This document shows positions 2,319-9,003 of a stretch of DNA of 24,000 nucleotides, piece after piece. Positions within the stretch are counted from its first letter, which is position 1. Every line of letters starts with the position of its first letter. Both the position numbers and the translations under genes were made by a program. The notes under the pieces are model-generated. The model saw nothing but the letters and a program-made list of their open reading frames with translations. It did not search any database and was not told the origin of the DNA. The DNA is from an uncultured Haemophilus sp. (GTDB lineage Bacteria > Pseudomonadota > Gammaproteobacteria > Enterobacterales > Pasteurellaceae), in assembly GCA_963545995.1 (NCBI GenBank), contig CAUUKJ010000019.1, positions 16,097 through 40,096 of the forward strand. Direction: 5' to 3'.

Positions 2319-2489
2319 TGATAGAAATAAGGAGTTGATATGATTCAACTTCTTATTTTATTATTAATATTTAGTGTAAAAAATAATCATGTAGTGTTAG
2401 AGAAGATAGGAATGACAAATCCTGTCGTTTAAAAGTTTAAAAATGATGATATATTATTCTTGTCGATGTTTATGTATAAGAGCAAAATA

Positions 2490-3398
2490 ATGCAAACAAA
2501 CAAACAAACAAACAAACGTCATACTCTCGCTAAACGCTTAGGCACAATTCTTTATCGCCTAAATTGTGGCGAACGTTTAGATCTTCTGCAACTCTCCGAA
2601 GAATTTAACCTCTCTCTTCGCACCCTACAACGTGATATTAATGAACGTCTTGCTTTTCTAACTTGGGAAGAACGTGGCGACCGTTTCTATAAAATCAATC
2701 AACAACAATCTGGCTTTTTAACAGAGGAAGATATTCATCGCTTCGCTTTTTTTGCCAGCATTTCTAATTTATTTCCCAAAATTGATCGTGAGTTTTATCA
2801 GAAGAAACTTTCAGAAAGTGTTCAGGTAAAAGGTTTTCATTATGAAGATATCAGCCATAAACAAGCTGAATTTTCAGCATTGAATAATGCTATAAAACAG
2901 CATCAATTCATTAGTTTTAAATATATAAAAAAGAGCACACAAGAAACAAAATTCTATCAAATAGCTCCTTATAAATTACTCAATAAAAATGGCATTTGGT
3001 ATCTTATTGGTACAGAAAATAATAAGCAAAAAACGTTCTGTTTTACCCAAATAAGTGATCTACTGGTATTAAATGAGTCTTTTACTCCAAATAAACAATT
3101 TTTAAATGAGATAGAAGAGAGTGATAGCTTATATCACGGTAATCAGATTTCAGAAGTAATTATTAAGGTCGATTCTAAAGTGAGTCATTATTTTTTGCGT
3201 AGGAATTTATTACCTAATCAAGAAGTAATGCATAAATCAGACGATAATACTTTATTACTCCTCTGTAAGAATGTAAATGAACAAGAAATCATTCCATTAG
3301 TACAATATTGGATACCTTATGTAACAATCATTAGTCCTGTAGAGCTGCAAGCTAAAATGATTGAAAAAATTCAGAACTATATTTTTAACTTAAAGTAA
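2490..3398 (+). CDS. HTH-WYL-WCX transcriptional regulator (BrxR/CapW-like), first gene of the dynamin-like cassette
   Basis: The N-terminal wHTH is LAKRLGTILYRLNCGERLDLLQLSEEFNLSLRTLQRDINERL. The central WYL domain carries the literal motif (FYQIAPYKLLNKNGIWYLIGTENNKQKTFCFTQISDL). The C-terminal extension ends VTIISPVELQAKMIEKI, typical of the WCX dimerisation domain. I prefer the ATG at 2490 (AAGAG 9 nt upstream). The ORF track opens at a TTG at 2460, and ATGs at 2466 and 2472 are in frame. Confidence 0.8.
   Translation: MQTNKQTNKRHTLAKRLGTILYRLNCGERLDLLQLSEEFNLSLRTLQRDINERLAFLTWEERGDRFYKINQQQSGFLTEEDIHRFAFFASISNLFPKIDREFYQKKLSESVQVKGFHYEDISHKQAEFSALNNAIKQHQFISFKYIKKSTQETKFYQIAPYKLLNKNGIWYLIGTENNKQKTFCFTQISDLLVLNESFTPNKQFLNEIEESDSLYHGNQISEVIIKVDSKVSHYFLRRNLLPNQEVMHKSDDNTLLLLCKNVNEQEIIPLVQYWIPYVTIISPVELQAKMIEKIQNYIFNLK
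2493..2516 (+). repeat. Perfect tetranucleotide simple-sequence repeat (CAAA)x6 at codons 2-9 of the WYL regulator
   Basis: Direct reading gives ATG CAAACAAACAAACAAACAAACAAA CGT, which translates as QTNKQTNK. Confidence 0.95.
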
Positions 3399-3417
3399 TT
3401 GTTTACGGAGAAAACTT

Positions 3418-5190
3418 ATGAACGCAAGAAAAGAGTTAGTCGATGATCTACAAAAAACGAAAGAGATTATTCTTCCTCTTAATTTAAATACTAAAACAAA
3501 AGAGGAGCAGATAAGTCTCTTAGATAAAGATATCAATAATATACAACATTTAGAGTTGATTATTCCTATTATCGGTGGTTTTAGTGTTGGGAAAAGTACG
3601 TTTATCAATCATTATTTAGGTCAAGAAAAATTGCTACCAACAGGCACACTTCCAGTAACAAAACTTGCTACTGAGTTACGTTACACATCTGGAGAAGAAT
3701 ATGCTGAGCTAATTAAAGTAGATGAGCAAGATATCGATAAAATTACAGAAATAAAAAGAATTAAACTCTCAGAATTGTCTTCTTTTGTTGCTGAAAGTGG
3801 GAACAAGGAAGAGGATTTAGACTATAACTATATTAAGTTATATATCAATAATACAAAGTTAAAAGAATTAGAACCTTTTATTATTGCGGATATGCCAGGG
3901 CTTAACTCTGGGAATAAATTACATAATCTTGCAATTGAATTTTACCTTAGAAGAGGTGTGCATTTTATTTTCTTAGAAAATGCTGAATCTGGAGAGATTA
4001 ATAATGATTCATTAAAAGAATTAGAAAATATCTTAAACAGTAATAAAGATTTCTCTTTTTGTTTAACAAGATGTGACAGAACGGATAATGAAACTTTACA
4101 AGAAGTTATAGATAAAATGGTTGATACCTTAGATGTTCAGTTAGGTGAAGATTATAAAATATATAGATCTAATTTAGAAGAAGAACCGGTCTTAGGTAGT
4201 ATCATTCGTGATATTGATCAAGATAAGATCATCAACGATATTTTCTTAGATGAGATAGATTCAAAAATCTGTAAAATCATTGAAATTCTAAAAGATAATG
4301 TTCAAGTGTTAAAAAATGATTCTGATAATATTAAATTAAGCCAAGAATATTTATTAAAACAAAAAGAACGCCTTAAAACACAGCAAAATAGAGAACTCGC
4401 TGAATTAGAGAATAAAAAATTTGATGGTGTTAATCAAATTCTAGAACAGGTTAAGGCAGAGTTACGTTTGAATAAATCACGTTTAATTAGTCGAATGGAA
4501 GGCGATCCGAAACAATTTTCTGAAGAAATAGGTTCTCTTGTTCAATCAAAATTAAGTAGCAGCATAAAAAGTTATCTGGAAAATGTAAGTTCTGAACTAA
4601 CAGAACGTTTTTCAAATATTTTGCATGACATTGCAGATAAAAACACCGATAGAATTGGTCTTGCAAATGAGACTTTAGAGCGTTTAAAAAATGATATTAA
4701 TCGCAATCTCAATAAAACATTGTTAGATATTAGAAATATAGATAGCGATATTAATGATACGGGAAGTGATAACAATATGTTAGGTTCCATTCTAAAAATG
4801 GTCATTTCATTTTTAACTGACAACCCTATTATTAAAAGTGTTGTTTCATTATTGCCTGATTTTATTAGTAATATTTTTTCAAGTTCTAGCCATAGTTCAT
4901 CAGATAGACATATTCAAGAGATGAAACGCCAAGATATGTTAGATAAAATATTTAATGAAAATATTGTACCAAAAGTTATCGGTGACATTAATGCTAAATT
5001 ACCTGAAATTCTTAATGATTTTAAATTAAAATTGATGAGCCAAATTAAAGAAATTTTTGAGAAAGAGTTGCAGCAAAAAGCAGAAGAGATAGATCGTGCT
5101 GTAAAAGAAAAAGGAAATGTAAAAAATAAAGAAAATGAGATTAGTTTATTAAGTCAAGCTATTGATTCATTGCAAGCACTAATTAAATAA
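3418..5190 (+). CDS. Dynamin-like GTPase paralogue 1 (BDLP/LeoA-like, 590 aa)
   Basis: A GGAG Shine-Dalgarno lies 7 nt upstream. The G1 P-loop is GGFSVGKST (aa 53-61), the G2-like motif is LPTGTLPVTKLAT, G3 is DMPG and G4-like is TRCD. A long K/E/N-rich helical stalk follows, with a hydrophobic paddle-like segment MLGSILKMVISFLTDNPIIKSVVSLLPDFISNIF (aa 454-487). Confidence 0.75.
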   Translation: MNARKELVDDLQKTKEIILPLNLNTKTKEEQISLLDKDINNIQHLELIIPIIGGFSVGKSTFINHYLGQEKLLPTGTLPVTKLATELRYTSGEEYAELIKVDEQDIDKITEIKRIKLSELSSFVAESGNKEEDLDYNYIKLYINNTKLKELEPFIIADMPGLNSGNKLHNLAIEFYLRRGVHFIFLENAESGEINNDSLKELENILNSNKDFSFCLTRCDRTDNETLQEVIDKMVDTLDVQLGEDYKIYRSNLEEEPVLGSIIRDIDQDKIINDIFLDEIDSKICKIIEILKDNVQVLKNDSDNIKLSQEYLLKQKERLKTQQNRELAELENKKFDGVNQILEQVKAELRLNKSRLISRMEGDPKQFSEEIGSLVQSKLSSSIKSYLENVSSELTERFSNILHDIADKNTDRIGLANETLERLKNDINRNLNKTLLDIRNIDSDINDTGSDNNMLGSILKMVISFLTDNPIIKSVVSLLPDFISNIFSSSSHSSSDRHIQEMKRQDMLDKIFNENIVPKVIGDINAKLPEILNDFKLKLMSQIKEIFEKELQQKAEEIDRAVKEKGNVKNKENEISLLSQAIDSLQALIK

Positions 5191-5216
5191 ATTTAATACA
5201 ACATTAAGGAACCAAT

Positions 5217-7460
5217 ATGAATATTTTAGATTTTACTAAAAAAGTAGAAAATCTTACTGATTTTGCAGAGAAGTGTAAGGTTGAACAACGCTTGCTACCA
5301 CGCAGTTATACCCCTAGTGCAGAACTCGCTAAAGAAGTAGCTAAACACGAGAAGGAAATGGCACAACAACGCATTCTAAAAATCGGTATTATTGGGCGGG
5401 TTAAAGCTGGTAAAAGCTCGTTATTAAATATGATCTTTTTTGATGGAAGAGGTGTTCTCCCTAAAGCGGTCACGCCAATGACAGCTACATTAACTTGCTT
5501 ACGTTATGGCGAAAAATATCGTGCAGAAATTGATTGTTTTAGCACAGAAGATATTGCCTTAATGAGAGAGAAAGCAAATGAAGTTAAAGAATTATTAGCA
5601 AAGAGAATAGAAGAAATAAAGAATGAATTCTTAGAAAAGAATAAAACCTCACGTAGAAAAATAGATGAATCAGAGATTCCTGAAAGAGCAGAAAGAAAAG
5701 CTAAAAGTGAATTTAAAGAGACTTCTGATTTTAGCATTTATGAGCAGGTTGAAGCATTCAAAAAAGCTGAAAAACCAAATGCGTTAATTATTAATGCTAG
5801 CTCACAAGATGATTTAATGAATAAATTAGCTGATTATGTAGGTGCAGATGGTAAATATACAGCATATACCAAATCCGTTACATTATATTTACCCGAAGAA
5901 GGATTAAAAGGTATTGAAGTTGTTGATACCCCAGGGGTAAACGATCCTGTTCAATCTCGTGAAGCAGTAACAAATAAATTTTTAGAAAACTGTCATGTTG
6001 TGTTAGCTATTCTTCCAACTCAAAATTTTGCTCAAGATGAAGAGTATAAATTTATTGATAAAACAATGAAAGCAGGTCATGTCGCTGATTGTTATCTCAT
6101 TGGAAGTCGATTTGATGGGAATTTACTTGATGCGGTTACTTCAGAGAAAATGGAAGCATTTGCATTAGTAAAAAAACAAAAAGAGGGGTTAATTGATCGA
6201 GCTAATAAAGTATTTTCAAAAATACAAAATACTAATTTTAATAGAATGGTCTTTTCATCAAGTATTGCATTTATTCTATTAAAGAATATCAATGATATAG
6301 AGGCTTGTAATAGCTATGATAAGAAACAGTGGGAAAATCTTTCATCGGCGTTTCCAGAAACATTTTCTAAAAAATCTGAAGTAGAACGATTCTTAAATGA
6401 AATCACAGGGAAGGATGAAATTCATCAGATCATTAAAGAAATAGCAGATGATAAAGATCAAAAGTTAGCGGTTTATGATCATAATTTTGAAAATCAATAT
6501 AAAAATAAGTTGAAAGACTATCTTTCAAATGTTGATAAGTATGCTGAGCAAGAAATTAATAAGCTGGAAACAGGAGATGTAAATCAGCTTCAAGCAGAAA
6601 AAGCCACGATTGAAAAAATGTCTCAGGAAATAAAATCTATTTCTAATAAGGTGTTTAAAGACTCTGTTACAAATTTTTCTTCTTCACTAAAAGAAAAATT
6701 AGTACGTAAAAATAAAGATATTTTCCGTAGTTTTAATGCTGAACAAGGCAGAAAAACCAAGACTGAAACATATACTTATATAGAAAGGGTTAAAAGAAAA
6801 CAGTCAGGGATAAGTGGAAAAATTAAAAGAGGTTTCGGATGGTTAACGAATAACTCAAGCTATGGTTATGATGATGATGAAGTTAAAAGAGAAGGTACTC
6901 GTACGATTAAAGTTTTAATTACTACAGGTGTTTGTGTGGATATTAAGGATATTCATAAAGAGATAGAAGAAAATCTTTCAATACTTGCACAGGAAAATCG
7001 TGCTGCTTGGCAAGATGATATTTGCGAGAAAATTCGTAGTGAATTAAATCGAATGAATACGAGCAAAGATGCTAAAGAAAAATTACCTCAAAAAGAGGTT
7101 ATCGATAATATGATTAAAAATATTATCTCTATGTTACCAATGATTAACTTTAAGTTACCTCCTATTCCTGAATTATTTACAAAACATGTAAGCTTAAGGG
7201 AAGAAGAAGGTAATGAATTTGTTCGTAAAGCGAAAGAATATGTTCAAACTTTAGAGCAATCCGTACATAAAAAAATAGAGAGTTATGTTCAAGAATATAG
7301 CCAGATTTTAGCTAAACAAGATGTGGGTGAAGAACTCATACAAGCATTAAAACAAGCTTTATCTAATACATTAGAGCAGTTGGCAGATAAAGAAAATAGT
7401 ATTAAAAACTTTAGAGAGATGTCTTCTAAAGCAAAAGGGTTACTAGTTGAAATCAACTAA
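5217..7460 (+). CDS. Dynamin-like GTPase paralogue 2 (747 aa)
   Basis: An AAGGA Shine-Dalgarno precedes the start. G1 is GRVKAGKSS, G2-like is LPKAVTPMTATLT, and G3 is DTPGVND after a highly charged insertion. G4-like is GSRFD. About 450 aa of predicted helical, coiled-coil-like stalk follow. Confidence 0.75.
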   Translation: MNILDFTKKVENLTDFAEKCKVEQRLLPRSYTPSAELAKEVAKHEKEMAQQRILKIGIIGRVKAGKSSLLNMIFFDGRGVLPKAVTPMTATLTCLRYGEKYRAEIDCFSTEDIALMREKANEVKELLAKRIEEIKNEFLEKNKTSRRKIDESEIPERAERKAKSEFKETSDFSIYEQVEAFKKAEKPNALIINASSQDDLMNKLADYVGADGKYTAYTKSVTLYLPEEGLKGIEVVDTPGVNDPVQSREAVTNKFLENCHVVLAILPTQNFAQDEEYKFIDKTMKAGHVADCYLIGSRFDGNLLDAVTSEKMEAFALVKKQKEGLIDRANKVFSKIQNTNFNRMVFSSSIAFILLKNINDIEACNSYDKKQWENLSSAFPETFSKKSEVERFLNEITGKDEIHQIIKEIADDKDQKLAVYDHNFENQYKNKLKDYLSNVDKYAEQEINKLETGDVNQLQAEKATIEKMSQEIKSISNKVFKDSVTNFSSSLKEKLVRKNKDIFRSFNAEQGRKTKTETYTYIERVKRKQSGISGKIKRGFGWLTNNSSYGYDDDEVKREGTRTIKVLITTGVCVDIKDIHKEIEENLSILAQENRAAWQDDICEKIRSELNRMNTSKDAKEKLPQKEVIDNMIKNIISMLPMINFKLPPIPELFTKHVSLREEEGNEFVRKAKEYVQTLEQSVHKKIESYVQEYSQILAKQDVGEELIQALKQALSNTLEQLADKENSIKNFREMSSKAKGLLVEIN

Positions 7461-7474
7461 GTATTAATATAAAC

Positions 7475-7510
7475 GTGTGCATTTTTGATATGCACACTTA
7501 TTTCTATTTT
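7475..7510 (+). terminator. Perfect 8-bp stem-loop plus T-rich tail between dynamin-like genes 2 and 3 (possible partial terminator or attenuator, or an mRNA-stabilising hairpin)
   Basis: GTGTGCAT (7475-7482), a 7-nt loop, then ATGCACAC (7490-7497), followed by TTATTTCTATTTT. Confidence 0.35.
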
Positions 7511-7523
7511 AAGAGGTATTTAC

Positions 7524-8909
7524 ATGAGTAAAAGTGAAAATCTAGATGCTATTTATGGTGGTATTGTTTTATTGGTTCCTGTAGCAGCTTATTTTTATGG
7601 ATATAGTTTCTGGGAGAGTGTTGGTATTTTCTTTTCTTTGTTTATTGTTATATTTATGATATCAAGTTTTTTCTCATATCTTTCTGGCAAGGCATCAGAG
7701 AAAAAGATGTCAGAATATATTGATAAATTGGGTATTAGAGAAAAGCTTGTTCTATCTTTAGTCAAAAAAAATCCAAATCATTCTAAATTAATTGATAAAT
7801 ATCACGATTTAGTAAATAAAGATTTTATGAATTTTTATTACAAAGTAGGTATGAAAGAACCATTGGTAATAGAGCAACTGAATCAAATTGAAACTGAGAT
7901 CAAAAAAATTGACTCTTTCCCTCAATTCTTAGGAAAAAGAATAGTTGCTGTAGGAGGTGGTTTTAGTGCAGGTAAGTCTCAATTTTTAATCAATTTATTA
8001 AAAGATGAAAAATTATCACTACCAACAAGCACAGAGCCAACAACAGCGATTCCAACTTATGTAATGCATGATGAAAAATCGGCATTGTATGGTATCGGTG
8101 AAAAAGGCAATATGATTAATTTAACCGATTTTGATCCTGAAATTGGTAAAAAACTGAATCATGACTTTATTCAAGCATTTGGGTTTAATTTAAAACATAT
8201 TATGCCTTATATGGTTATGACTAACCAACTTGCTTATGAAAATATCTGCTTTATTGATACACCAGGATATAATCCATCTTCTAGTGATGACTCTTATACA
8301 AAAGAGGATAGAAAAGAGGCGAAGAAATTTATTCAAAGTGCAGATTCACTCATTTGGCTTATTCCGATTAATACAGGTACTGTTTCTAAAAAAGATTTAG
8401 ATTTTTTAGAAGAGGTTCTATTAGAGGATCAAAAACTTTATATCGTTCTGAATAAAGCTGATCAGTTAGATTCAAATAGTTTAAACAAAGTGCTCGATGA
8501 AGTGGAAACAAGATTAGATGATAATCAGATTGATTATGAGGGGATTTCAGTTTACAGCTCAAAAGATAAAAAAGAATATTTCTTTAAAGAGAAATCTCTA
8601 AATAGTTTCCTGCTAGAGAATAATTTTAATTCATTTGAAACTAATAAGATGATTGATAATACTCAAAGATTAATTTCAGATAGACTTAATGAAATTAAAT
8701 CTAAACAAGAAGAATTTAAACATAAATTAGTTGAAATTCGTAACGTGCTTGCAGCTGATTTTAAATCGAATCATGAAGATATTGTTGATGAGTTAATTGA
8801 ACAATGCGATGATGCAGGTCATGAGGCAGAGTTAAAAGAAATTATGGATAAACTTAGAAAAACAATTAAGGATTTGTATTTATCGTACAAAGATTCAAAT
8901 AAGGAATAA
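7524..8909 (+). CDS. Membrane-anchored dynamin-like GTPase paralogue 3 (~461 aa)
   Basis: AAGAGG lies 7 nt upstream of the ATG at 7524; the track's TTG at 7485 sits inside the upstream hairpin. There are two N-terminal hydrophobic helices (IYGGIVLLVPVAAYFYGYSFW and VGIFFSLFIVIFMISSFFSYL). G1 is GGGFSAGKSQ, G2-like is LPTSTEPTTAIPT, G3 is DTPGYN and G4 is a canonical NKAD. Confidence 0.75.
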   Translation: MSKSENLDAIYGGIVLLVPVAAYFYGYSFWESVGIFFSLFIVIFMISSFFSYLSGKASEKKMSEYIDKLGIREKLVLSLVKKNPNHSKLIDKYHDLVNKDFMNFYYKVGMKEPLVIEQLNQIETEIKKIDSFPQFLGKRIVAVGGGFSAGKSQFLINLLKDEKLSLPTSTEPTTAIPTYVMHDEKSALYGIGEKGNMINLTDFDPEIGKKLNHDFIQAFGFNLKHIMPYMVMTNQLAYENICFIDTPGYNPSSSDDSYTKEDRKEAKKFIQSADSLIWLIPINTGTVSKKDLDFLEEVLLEDQKLYIVLNKADQLDSNSLNKVLDEVETRLDDNQIDYEGISVYSSKDKKEYFFKEKSLNSFLLENNFNSFETNKMIDNTQRLISDRLNEIKSKQEEFKHKLVEIRNVLAADFKSNHEDIVDELIEQCDDAGHEAELKEIMDKLRKTIKDLYLSYKDSNKE

Positions 8910-8956
8910 TTTGTTGCGTAAACAGCCTATTTTAGGTAAATAAAAATTTTAAGAGT

Positions 8957-8995
8957 AAAAATTGCCACTAGATAATTTCAGTGGCAATTTTTTTA
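8957..8995. terminator. Bidirectional intrinsic terminator shared by the convergent dynamin-like gene 3 and ndh
   Basis: AAAAATTGCCACT (8957-8969) pairs with AGTGGCAATTTTT (8980-8992). It is flanked by an A-run and a T-run. Confidence 0.75.
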
Positions 8996-9003
8996 TTTAA
9001 AAA

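Follow-up and report, generated by a model that had tools for sequence, protein, structure and literature searches.

A tripartite dynamin-like GTPase operon with a putatively phase-variable WYL regulator in an uncultured Haemophilus species

Bacterial dynamins are usually discussed as single, fused or paired proteins. Eleos (the 'dynamins' system; Millman et al. 2022) is a two-gene dynamin operon encoding LeoA and LeoBC that protects Bacillus subtilis against jumbo phages; P-loop mutations in either protein abolish defence, and a 60% co-localisation with known defence systems was reported. In enterotoxigenic Escherichia coli (ETEC), one of the two Eleos genes is split into LeoC and LeoB. The fused B. 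subtilis protein DynA delays phage-induced lysis and clusters at membrane damage caused by pore-forming antibiotics and phage, with one half of the protein binding the membrane and the other not. Here we describe a stretch of 24,000 nucleotides (nt) from an uncultured Haemophilus species (contig CAUUKJ010000019.1, positions 16,097 to 40,096), referred to as a whole as the window, in which a 6.6-kb block between ygfZ and ndh carries a gene for a WYL regulator followed by three genes for dynamin-like proteins (DLPs), hereafter DLP-A, DLP-B and DLP-C.

This cassette resembles Eleos and LeoABC in being an operon of several dynamin-like GTPases located in accessory DNA. However, Eleos consists of two proteins, whereas the cassette of the window encodes three complete G domains, and both the third mini-DLP and the WYL regulator are missing from Eleos, for which phase variation has not been described either. 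DynA, the product of a housekeeping gene, is one polypeptide of about 1,200 aa with two DLP units, whereas the genes of the cassette are separate. By both profile and fold, the nearest solved relatives of DLP-A and DLP-B are the Campylobacter jejuni proteins Cj-DLP1 and Cj-DLP2 and the Nostoc protein BDLP, with which the cassette shares the tandem operon layout and the succession of G domain, helical neck or trunk, and tip. These relatives form pairs, however, whereas the cassette adds a conserved third, stalk-less subunit, and DLP-B differs from the BDLP pairs in the large helical insertion within its G domain and in its beta-hairpin tip. Multi-dynamin operons are the known part of this locus; the new part is the tripartite organisation, the mini-DLP subunit and the apparently phase-variable WYL regulator.

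Identity and anatomy of the three dynamin-like proteins

The three proteins had been predicted to be dynamin-superfamily GTPases of the BDLP class, and this placement was upheld by Pfam, by profile comparison with PDB and, for DLP-B and DLP-C, by structural modelling and Foldseek. The Pfam Dynamin_N model was matched above the gathering score by DLP-A (3e-16), DLP-B (3e-19) and DLP-C (8e-15). The family profile of DLP-A retrieved Nostoc BDLP (1e-17) and C. jejuni DLP2 (5e-16) from PDB, that of DLP-B retrieved C. jejuni DLP1 (6e-19) and BDLP (1e-14), and that of DLP-C retrieved C. jejuni DLP2 (2e-9) and also EHD2; LeoA (4AUR) was absent from the matches of all three. Each protein has its own P-loop (GGFSVGKST, GRVKAGKSS and GGGFSAGKSQ, respectively), together with the LPxxxxPxT and DxPG motifs and a G4-like motif (TRCD, SRFD and NKAD), so that the G1–G4 set initially noted for each protein is present throughout. 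In alignments of 32–34 family members per protein, the P-loop, the switch-1 threonine and the DxPG residues were invariant, and G4 was conserved in DLP-B and DLP-C and loose only in DLP-A.

AlphaFold2 (AF2) models were made for DLP-B and DLP-C, and DLP-A was read by profile, hydropathy and hhalign. The DLP-B model (pLDDT 81) begins with N-terminal helices, followed by a G domain with a long helical insert of roughly 75 residues (about amino acids [aa] 110–183) and by two long stalk helices leading to a beta-hairpin/helix tip and a return bundle. Its full-length Foldseek matches were BDLP at the top (3e-14), SynDLP, IniA, Cj-DLP1/2 and mitofusins, and no hydrophobic segment was found in this protein by 19-residue Kyte-Doolittle hydropathy. 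DLP-A aligns to DLP-B over 522 columns (hhalign probability 98.7%). Most members of the DLP-A family have a strongly hydrophobic tip at about aa 440–475 (19-residue Kyte-Doolittle mean 2.0–2.4); the tip or 'paddle' segment of the window protein, at about aa 454–489 (within 3418–5190, + strand), is weaker, with a mean of 1.3–1.4. This hydrophobic segment appears to coincide with the position expected for the BDLP paddle. The stalk and tip of the BDLP/mitofusin class were thus found in DLP-B, by AF2 and Foldseek, and in DLP-A, through the full-length hhalign alignment to DLP-B and the conserved hydrophobic tip, whereas DLP-C is a truncated member of the class, with a G domain and a short bundle only, like a mini-mitofusin.

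In the DLP-C model (pLDDT 75, pTM 0.69), a pair of hydrophobic helices at the N-terminus precedes a complete G domain, and a short helical bundle forms the C-terminus. Its Foldseek matches, at about 1e-10, were stalk-less 'mini-mitofusin' constructs, IniA, BDLP and EHD, and its G domain was nearest to that of DLP-A (hhalign 6.7e-26). The proposal of three complete paralogues therefore stands for the G domains, but not for DLP-C as a whole. Likewise, the proposed membrane anchor is present in the window, where the N-terminus of DLP-C forms a two-helix transmembrane (TM) hairpin at about aa 8–55 (19-residue Kyte-Doolittle peak 2.38), but it is not a general feature: the hairpin is limited to the window's lineage, a 56%-identical sister lineage and one spirochaete, and the N-terminus is a coiled coil in most other homologues. 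A core of about 300 aa is conserved among the DLP-C homologues, whose total length varies from 313 to 794 aa (e.g. P0255, P0301, P0309, P0331 and P0359), and the additional regions found among them include Sel1, WG_beta_rep, DUF285 and PF24406 domains, long coiled coils and long C-terminal extensions. The N-terminus of DLP-C is the variable part of the system.

DLP-A, DLP-B and DLP-C are thus three distinct, anciently diverged GTPases of the BDLP/mitofusin class that have kept their catalytic motifs. Taken together, they resemble a canonical heterotypic DLP pair, with a membrane-binding A and a soluble B, to which a truncated third GTPase has been added that could target or nucleate the pair. 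The possibility that DLP-C is a LeoC-like split GTPase was ruled out, its G domain being complete.

The original prediction had also suggested an Eleos-related module, and the relation proved to be very distant at most. The NCBIfam LeoA/HP0731 model gave 22.5 bits, against a cutoff of 325. PADLOC 2.0 returned only short, weak and partial matches to LeoA and LeoBC at the level of the P-loop for the window, with LeoA as the best match of DLP-A and none for DLP-B; among the homologues of DLP-B, the best match was LeoBC, again short and weak. The trios of Helicobacter pylori, Pseudomonas and E. coli likewise remained below the Eleos family models. These matches suggest a very distant correspondence of A and B to LeoA and LeoBC, but the scores are far below the family cutoffs, and the trio is therefore at most a very distant relative of Eleos, and not Eleos. 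An arrangement of Eleos plus one extra gene was also ruled out, since the family models fail for all three proteins. The NCBIfam DynA model gave 19–23 bits for trio homologues, against a cutoff of 1600, and no NCBIfam match of the window proteins to this model (NF052648) was obtained at E<=0.1. The CrfC/YjdA equivalog model gave 36 bits, against a cutoff of 1146, over the N-terminal 100 aa only.

Distribution and genomic setting of the cassette

More than 2,500 homologues of DLP-B were found in a large protein collection, with 540 representatives at 50% identity (E<=1e-30), nearly all of which are 720–790 aa long. A scan of one genome per species yielded 402 confirmed relatives. The order of the open reading frames (ORFs) was classified in the best 80 of these 402 loci with hidden Markov models built from three cassettes, and an ordered A-B-C trio was found in 70 of the 80, most of the other ten being contig ends. 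Across the trio loci, DLP-A has about 550–600 aa, DLP-B about 740–780 aa and DLP-C 414–1,029 aa. The genes are mostly overlapping or nearly abutting, with median intergenic distances of +4 and -4 nt. Such spacing would be expected if translation were coupled and the products formed a stoichiometric complex, and the trio genes are apparently translationally coupled. The carriers include many H. pylori lineages, other Helicobacter, Campylobacter and Sulfurovum; Treponema and other spirochaetes; Neisseria, Moraxella, Pelistega, Pasteurellaceae, Pseudomonas, Comamonas/Acidovorax and Thiothrix; and Fibrobacter, Bacteroidales, Latescibacterota and Fervidobacterium. In H. pylori, DLP-A and DLP-B are often split by frameshifts.

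The arrangement had been described as unlike any known one. It is indeed uncatalogued, with no named match in PADLOC 2.0, NCBIfam or the papers searched, but it is not a local oddity, given the recurrence of the A-B-C order in many phyla. In the searched library, no paper combining 'WYL domain' or 'BrxR' with dynamin was found, combinations of dynamin, HEPN and WYL gave nothing relevant, and the only mentions of the trio concerned H. pylori genomic islands, where its genes are listed, without a name, as 'dynamin family'. The trio is common, yet uncharacterised as a unit.

Plasmid-borne copies were also found. The E. coli trio occurs in 5 of 5,426 complete genomes, always on plasmids (IncF) and next to partition genes, and P. 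aeruginosa megaplasmids also carry a trio; a search of phage genomes for DLP-B homologues gave none. On one of the IncF plasmids (NZ_CP148279.1, 39184–53936; locus L099), the trio proteins have 563, 724 and 405 aa, and they are followed by an 829-aa CFI-box-CTERM protein, the start of which overlaps the end of the third dynamin gene. Two consecutive genes of the DLP-C type, making four dynamin genes, were observed in five loci (L022, L027, L035, L047 and L050). In spirochaetes (L011, L015 and L027), the trio is immediately followed by a pair of conserved ORFs (about 316 and 184 aa), and in Fibrobacter (L066, L075 and L077) by arrays of Fib_succ_major domain proteins. An all-against-all BLAST of 300 neighbours revealed lineage-specific companions only, and no universally linked further gene.

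A further companion is a co-oriented fifth gene of about 220 aa, 3' of the trio. Apart from the window's lineage and the sister cassette, both of which are without it and have a TM-anchored DLP-C, cassettes with the WYL regulator carry this gene (L001, 7186–7842; L003, 14596–15258; also L010, L022, L047, L050 and L102). Among the species-representative loci scanned, no cassette lacking the regulator has it. The encoded protein has an invariant YTLRNQxxHGG motif (Rx4H) and no significant match in Pfam, NCBIfam, PADLOC or PDB, the best being RiboL-PSP HEPN (0.03) and ApeA (1.5); we call it HEPN-like because of the invariant RNQxxHGG motif only. The proteins of the window itself have no nuclease or other effector domain, in agreement with what had been noted initially, the HEPN-like gene being confined to relatives.

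In the window, the guanine-plus-cytosine (GC) content of the block, measured over 2360–8956, is 0.296, versus 0.430 in the left flank and 0.399 in the right flank; third-position GC (GC3) is about 0.20, versus 0.37–0.39 in ygfZ and ndh. The flanking genes were identified by Pfam as ygfZ and an ndh-type oxidoreductase gene. The ORF coordinates reproduced the four co-oriented genes originally listed, all on the + strand: the WYL regulator gene (2490–3398, 302 aa), DLP-A (3418–5190, 590 aa), DLP-B (5217–7460, 747 aa) and DLP-C (7524–8909, 461 aa), separated by gaps of 19, 26 and 63 nt. Purine-rich motifs resembling Shine-Dalgarno sequences precede the starts, GGAG, AAGGA and AGAGG for the dynamin genes and a weaker AAGAG for the WYL gene. 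The left edge of the AT-rich block is the terminator hairpin of ygfZ (2324–2359, + strand), detected by terminator scan, with a fold of 2318–2372 at -18.1 kcal/mol. The single strong terminator expected at the right edge (8957–8995) was recovered as a bidirectional intrinsic terminator that closes both the operon and the convergent ndh, with an A-run before and a U-run after it and an RNA fold of 8945–9003 at -20 kcal/mol. It was not called by the consensus scan, probably because its loop exceeds the 8-nt limit of the scan, and the same junction is present in a 93%-identical relative. Between DLP-B and DLP-C, a hairpin (7475–7497, + strand; arms GTGTGCAT...ATGCACAC) has a perfect 8-bp stem (-11.5 kcal/mol) and is followed by a T-rich stretch; it may set the level of the third subunit, acting as an attenuator or as a processing site.

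The composition of the block, its absence after ygfZ in relatives, its varied insertion sites and the plasmid copies support the idea of a foreign accessory block, and on this comparative evidence the operon is accessory DNA gained by horizontal transfer. Relatives with YgfZ proteins 92%, 75% and 73% identical have no cassette after ygfZ. The comparison of the ygfZ-ndh junction that had been suggested was therefore informative in one respect, the cassette not being universally present, but it yielded no clean empty site: none of these relatives has an exact empty ygfZ-ndh junction, and the adjacency of the two genes is not conserved, since the downstream genes differ (leuDC, a ferredoxin gene). 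Elsewhere, the cassette is inserted between sodB and cysK (H. haemolyticus), cysI and cysJ (Neisseria), glnS and efp (Actinobacillus genomosp. 1), and lpxK and leuC in a sister species, whose cassette is 53–56% identical. No shared direct or inverted repeat of >=10 nt, no integrase and no tRNA was found at the borders in the window.

The WYL regulator and its repeat tract

Regulators of the WYL family respond to nucleic-acid ligands. The assignment of the first gene to an HTH-WYL-WCX regulator was corroborated by Pfam, PADLOC and PDB profiles. Pfam identified the WYL domain (9.5e-11), WCX just below the cutoff (2.7e-4) and a weak HTH_11 (0.04), and the PADLOC WYL model matched aa 13–285, nearly the full length (1.4e-25). 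A profile of ten cassette-linked homologues retrieved PafBC (1e-19), DriD (6e-13) and BrxR (5e-6) from PDB, with coverage of both the HTH and WYL regions. The protein is therefore an HTH-WYL-WCX regulator with the architecture of BrxR, CapW, PafBC and DriD, with which it shares the domain order, the position directly upstream of the controlled genes and a palindrome at or abutting the promoter; however, it is nearer in sequence to PafBC and DriD, which are activated by single-stranded DNA (ssDNA), than to BrxR. HTH-WYL-WCX regulators control BREX and CBASS systems (PMC9122589). The description of a trio under a WYL regulator applies to the window, but only to a subset of the cassettes: the Pasteurellaceae, Neisseria and Comamonadaceae loci have the regulator immediately upstream, as do one of the Campylobacter loci from metagenome-assembled genomes and the cassette on a Pseudomonas plasmid, and it is missing from most others.

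Upstream of the WYL gene, an imperfect palindrome, TGACA-N5-TGTCG (2413–2427, with no strand assigned; TGACAAATCCTGTCG in the window), abuts the -35 element of a sigma-70-like promoter (2428–2455, + strand), which was recognised by consensus match only (TTTAAA, 16 nt, TATATT, with TG before the -10). Its counterparts are CGACAGTACCTGTCG in Neisseria, CGACACAACCTGACG in Rodentibacter and CGACAAACCCTGTCG in the sister species, and it is the one motif common to the regions upstream of the WYL gene in cassettes with 29–56% protein identity. From this conservation, the palindrome is likely to be the operator of the WYL protein. It is also kept upstream of the WYL gene in a Canicola cassette.

In the contingency loci of Pasteurellaceae, Neisseria and Helicobacter, such as the phase-variable mod and lic genes, a tetranucleotide tract lies just after the start codon, its copy number varies among near-identical strains, and its frame sets the ON or OFF state. 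The original prediction recognised the WYL family of the regulator, but overlooked a (CAAA)6 tract (2493–2516, + strand; 6.2 copies and a 100% match in Tandem Repeats Finder) that directly follows the ATG of its gene and would act as a phase-variation switch. Contigs of the same species, identified through an identical Ndh protein and with flanks identical to those of the window, were compared. The window has six copies and is in frame (ON), whereas one contig (L087) has five copies, with a stop after 15 codons (OFF), and another (L088) has four units, three CAAA and one CAAC, and is out of frame (OFF). A third (L089) has at least seven copies and a 93%-identical relative (L101) at least six, the frame being unreadable in both since the contigs end or break inside the tract. 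In the sister species, the tract occupies the same position, with 6, 9, 12, 9 and 6 copies in five contigs and an intact ORF body. The presence of ATGs in the other two frames means that the gene is OFF there only when the copy number is a multiple of three, and all five contigs fall into this OFF class, for which the chance would be about 0.4% if lengths were random, although the samples may not be independent. Overall, seven of the eight readable tract alleles are OFF, with the ORF body intact. A metagenome pattern scan for further tract alleles yielded one additional contig.

An intact ORF body with tract length alone differing argues for a contingency gene and not for decay, and pseudogene decay was ruled out on these grounds as the origin of the truncated WYL calls in relatives. 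The allele sequences thus indicate that the WYL gene is a simple-sequence contingency (phase-variable) locus. The lic and mod loci switch enzymes of surface structures or methyltransferases, whereas the gene switched here would be the transcription regulator of a dynamin operon. To our knowledge, tetranucleotide-repeat contingency control of the WYL regulator of a stress- or defence-type operon has not been reported, and the searched library contained no paper on the switching of a WYL regulator by a tetranucleotide repeat in its coding region. Since the sequence of the regulator fits either a repressor (BrxR) or an activator (PafBC, DriD), the operon could be constitutive or silent with the regulator OFF, and the outcome depends on the sign of regulation.

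Other repeats were observed in relatives. In H. pylori, a tiny leader ORF contains a polymorphic (TC)5–11 tract, about 130 bp upstream of DLP-A (L026, L032, L033, L037, L040, L044, L061, L068 and L084, at about 8070–8233). G tracts occur at or near frameshift sites or the ends of DLP-A or DLP-C: G13 at a frameshift site inside DLP-A of H. salomonis (L023, 8594), G10 in a spirochaete cassette (L073, 8427), and G9 in Rodentibacter (L010, 13333) and Acinetobacter (L007, 6045). These tracts may be independent phase-variation sites. The Rodentibacter locus also has a (CAAT)15 tract (6904–6963) about 240 bp upstream of the WYL gene, in a small ORF of the form M-L-(SINQ)n.

Proposed function and competing explanations

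We consider that an inducible, phase-variable role in membrane protection or defence, similar to that of DynA or Eleos and distinct from housekeeping, has an even chance of being the correct interpretation. Under such a model, A and B would form a heterotypic DLP pair, as do Cj-DLP1/2, LeoA/LeoBC or the halves of DynA, and DLP-C would pin or nucleate this pair at the inner membrane through G-domain contacts, with GTP-driven assembly tethering, sealing or reshaping the membrane. The WYL protein would bind the palindrome and couple transcription to a nucleic-acid ligand, such as ssDNA from damage or phage replication, and slippage of the (CAAA)n tract would toggle the regulator, so that the population would hold two expression states of the operon. 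The trio would then shield the cytoplasmic membrane when phages attack or a prophage is induced. This reading is reasonable in view of the regulator type, the HEPN-like companion found in relatives, cassette mobility, the contingency control and the precedents of Eleos and DynA. The separate simple-sequence tracts at the cassette in Helicobacter and spirochaetes also lean towards defence.

Several observations weigh against it. The 133 immediate neighbours of 37 diverse loci were compared with PADLOC and Pfam, and most of them are housekeeping genes, so defence is unproven; most cassettes sit alone among such genes and not in defence islands, and in complete Pasteurellaceae genomes, housekeeping genes lie on both flanks. 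Defence-like neighbours were a minority: five XRE HTH proteins and, with two cases each, type I methyltransferase, zeta toxin, E1-E2 and WYL. The window has no known effector, the trio does not reach the Eleos models, and none of its members has a known phenotype. By sequence, the regulator is nearer to PafBC and DriD, which are activators, than to BrxR, which is a repressor. Host-interaction genes are just as typically phase-variable, and the A-B-C complex and the role of DLP-C are deduced from gene order and domain anatomy only. The evidence for defence is therefore circumstantial and proceeds by analogy, the neighbourhood evidence being weak.

The suggested check for cassettes with a WYL gene and the trio in defence islands elsewhere nevertheless gave one clear case, from a P. 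aeruginosa megaplasmid. There (NZ_CP133095.1, 10074–30146; L098), the WYL-A-B-C cassette lies beside ZorC and ZorD of a type I Zorya system and is flanked by IS256 and IS30 transposases and integrases. In contigs of the sister species (L094–L097, 16107–21066), a cluster encoding WYL, PD-(D/E)XK_4, AAA ATPase and SIR2 proteins, situated about 5 kb from the cassette, looks like another defence system.

A broader form of the defence proposal, which we advance only tentatively, is that the A-B-C trio constitutes a distinct and widespread anti-phage or membrane-guard system, found in H. pylori, commensal Neisseria, Pasteurellaceae and Pseudomonas megaplasmids. In it, the stalk-less DLP-C would recruit the paddle-bearing DLP-A and the soluble DLP-B, with its variable N- and C-terminal modules (TM hairpin, coiled coil, Sel1, WG-repeat and others) serving to target or sense, and in some lineages a phase-variable, ssDNA-sensing WYL regulator would gate the system and provide bet-hedging between armed and unarmed cells.

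It appears unlikely, although it is the best of the competing explanations, that the trio is a host-interaction or vesiculation factor, involved in the release of outer-membrane vesicles or toxins, as first proposed for LeoABC, and phase-variable for immune evasion or niche adaptation at mucosal surfaces. Deletion of leo halves vesicle-associated Tat-GFP and OmpA (PMC4159319), and dynamin genes are listed as putative virulence cargo in studies of H. pylori genomic islands (PMC8935386). Many carriers are mucosal (Helicobacter, Campylobacter, Neisseria, Haemophilus, Treponema and Moraxella), and simple-sequence contingency tracts are typical of genes of this kind. However, free-living Pseudomonas, Thiothrix, Latescibacterota, Fervidobacterium and Sulfurovum also carry the trio, its proteins have no signal peptides and lie outside the LeoA family, and the WYL family responds to nucleic-acid ligands.

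Somewhat less probable still is a general envelope-stress repair function of the IniA/IniC or DynA kind, with no dedicated anti-phage role. The structural likeness to IniA, BDLP and mitofusin and the housekeeping neighbours would fit such a function, as would the localisation of DynA at membrane damage from pore-forming antibiotics as well as phage. The patchy, transferred distribution argues against a general maintenance function, however, as do the foreign GC content, the phase variation and the frequent frameshifts in H. pylori, and the WYL family senses nucleic acids and not envelope stress. A role as mobile-element cargo (entry exclusion, remodelling during conjugation or plasmid stability) would be in keeping with the E. 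coli IncF copies beside partition genes and the P. aeruginosa megaplasmid copies between IS elements and integrases, but it is very improbable: the majority of copies lie on chromosomes, away from transfer genes, phage genomes yielded none, and the window has neither flanking repeats nor an integrase.

Returning to the tripartite operon itself, a conserved three-subunit dynamin with a stalk-less third GTPase would extend the models of heterotypic dynamin assembly and would be relevant to mitofusin-type fusion. The naturally occurring ON and OFF (CAAA)n alleles provide a simple genetic handle for a direct comparison of the two states. If the trio defends against phage, it would represent a second dynamin-based immune family beside Eleos, and one present in important human-associated bacteria, namely H. 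pylori, Neisseria, Haemophilus and, on plasmids, P. aeruginosa.

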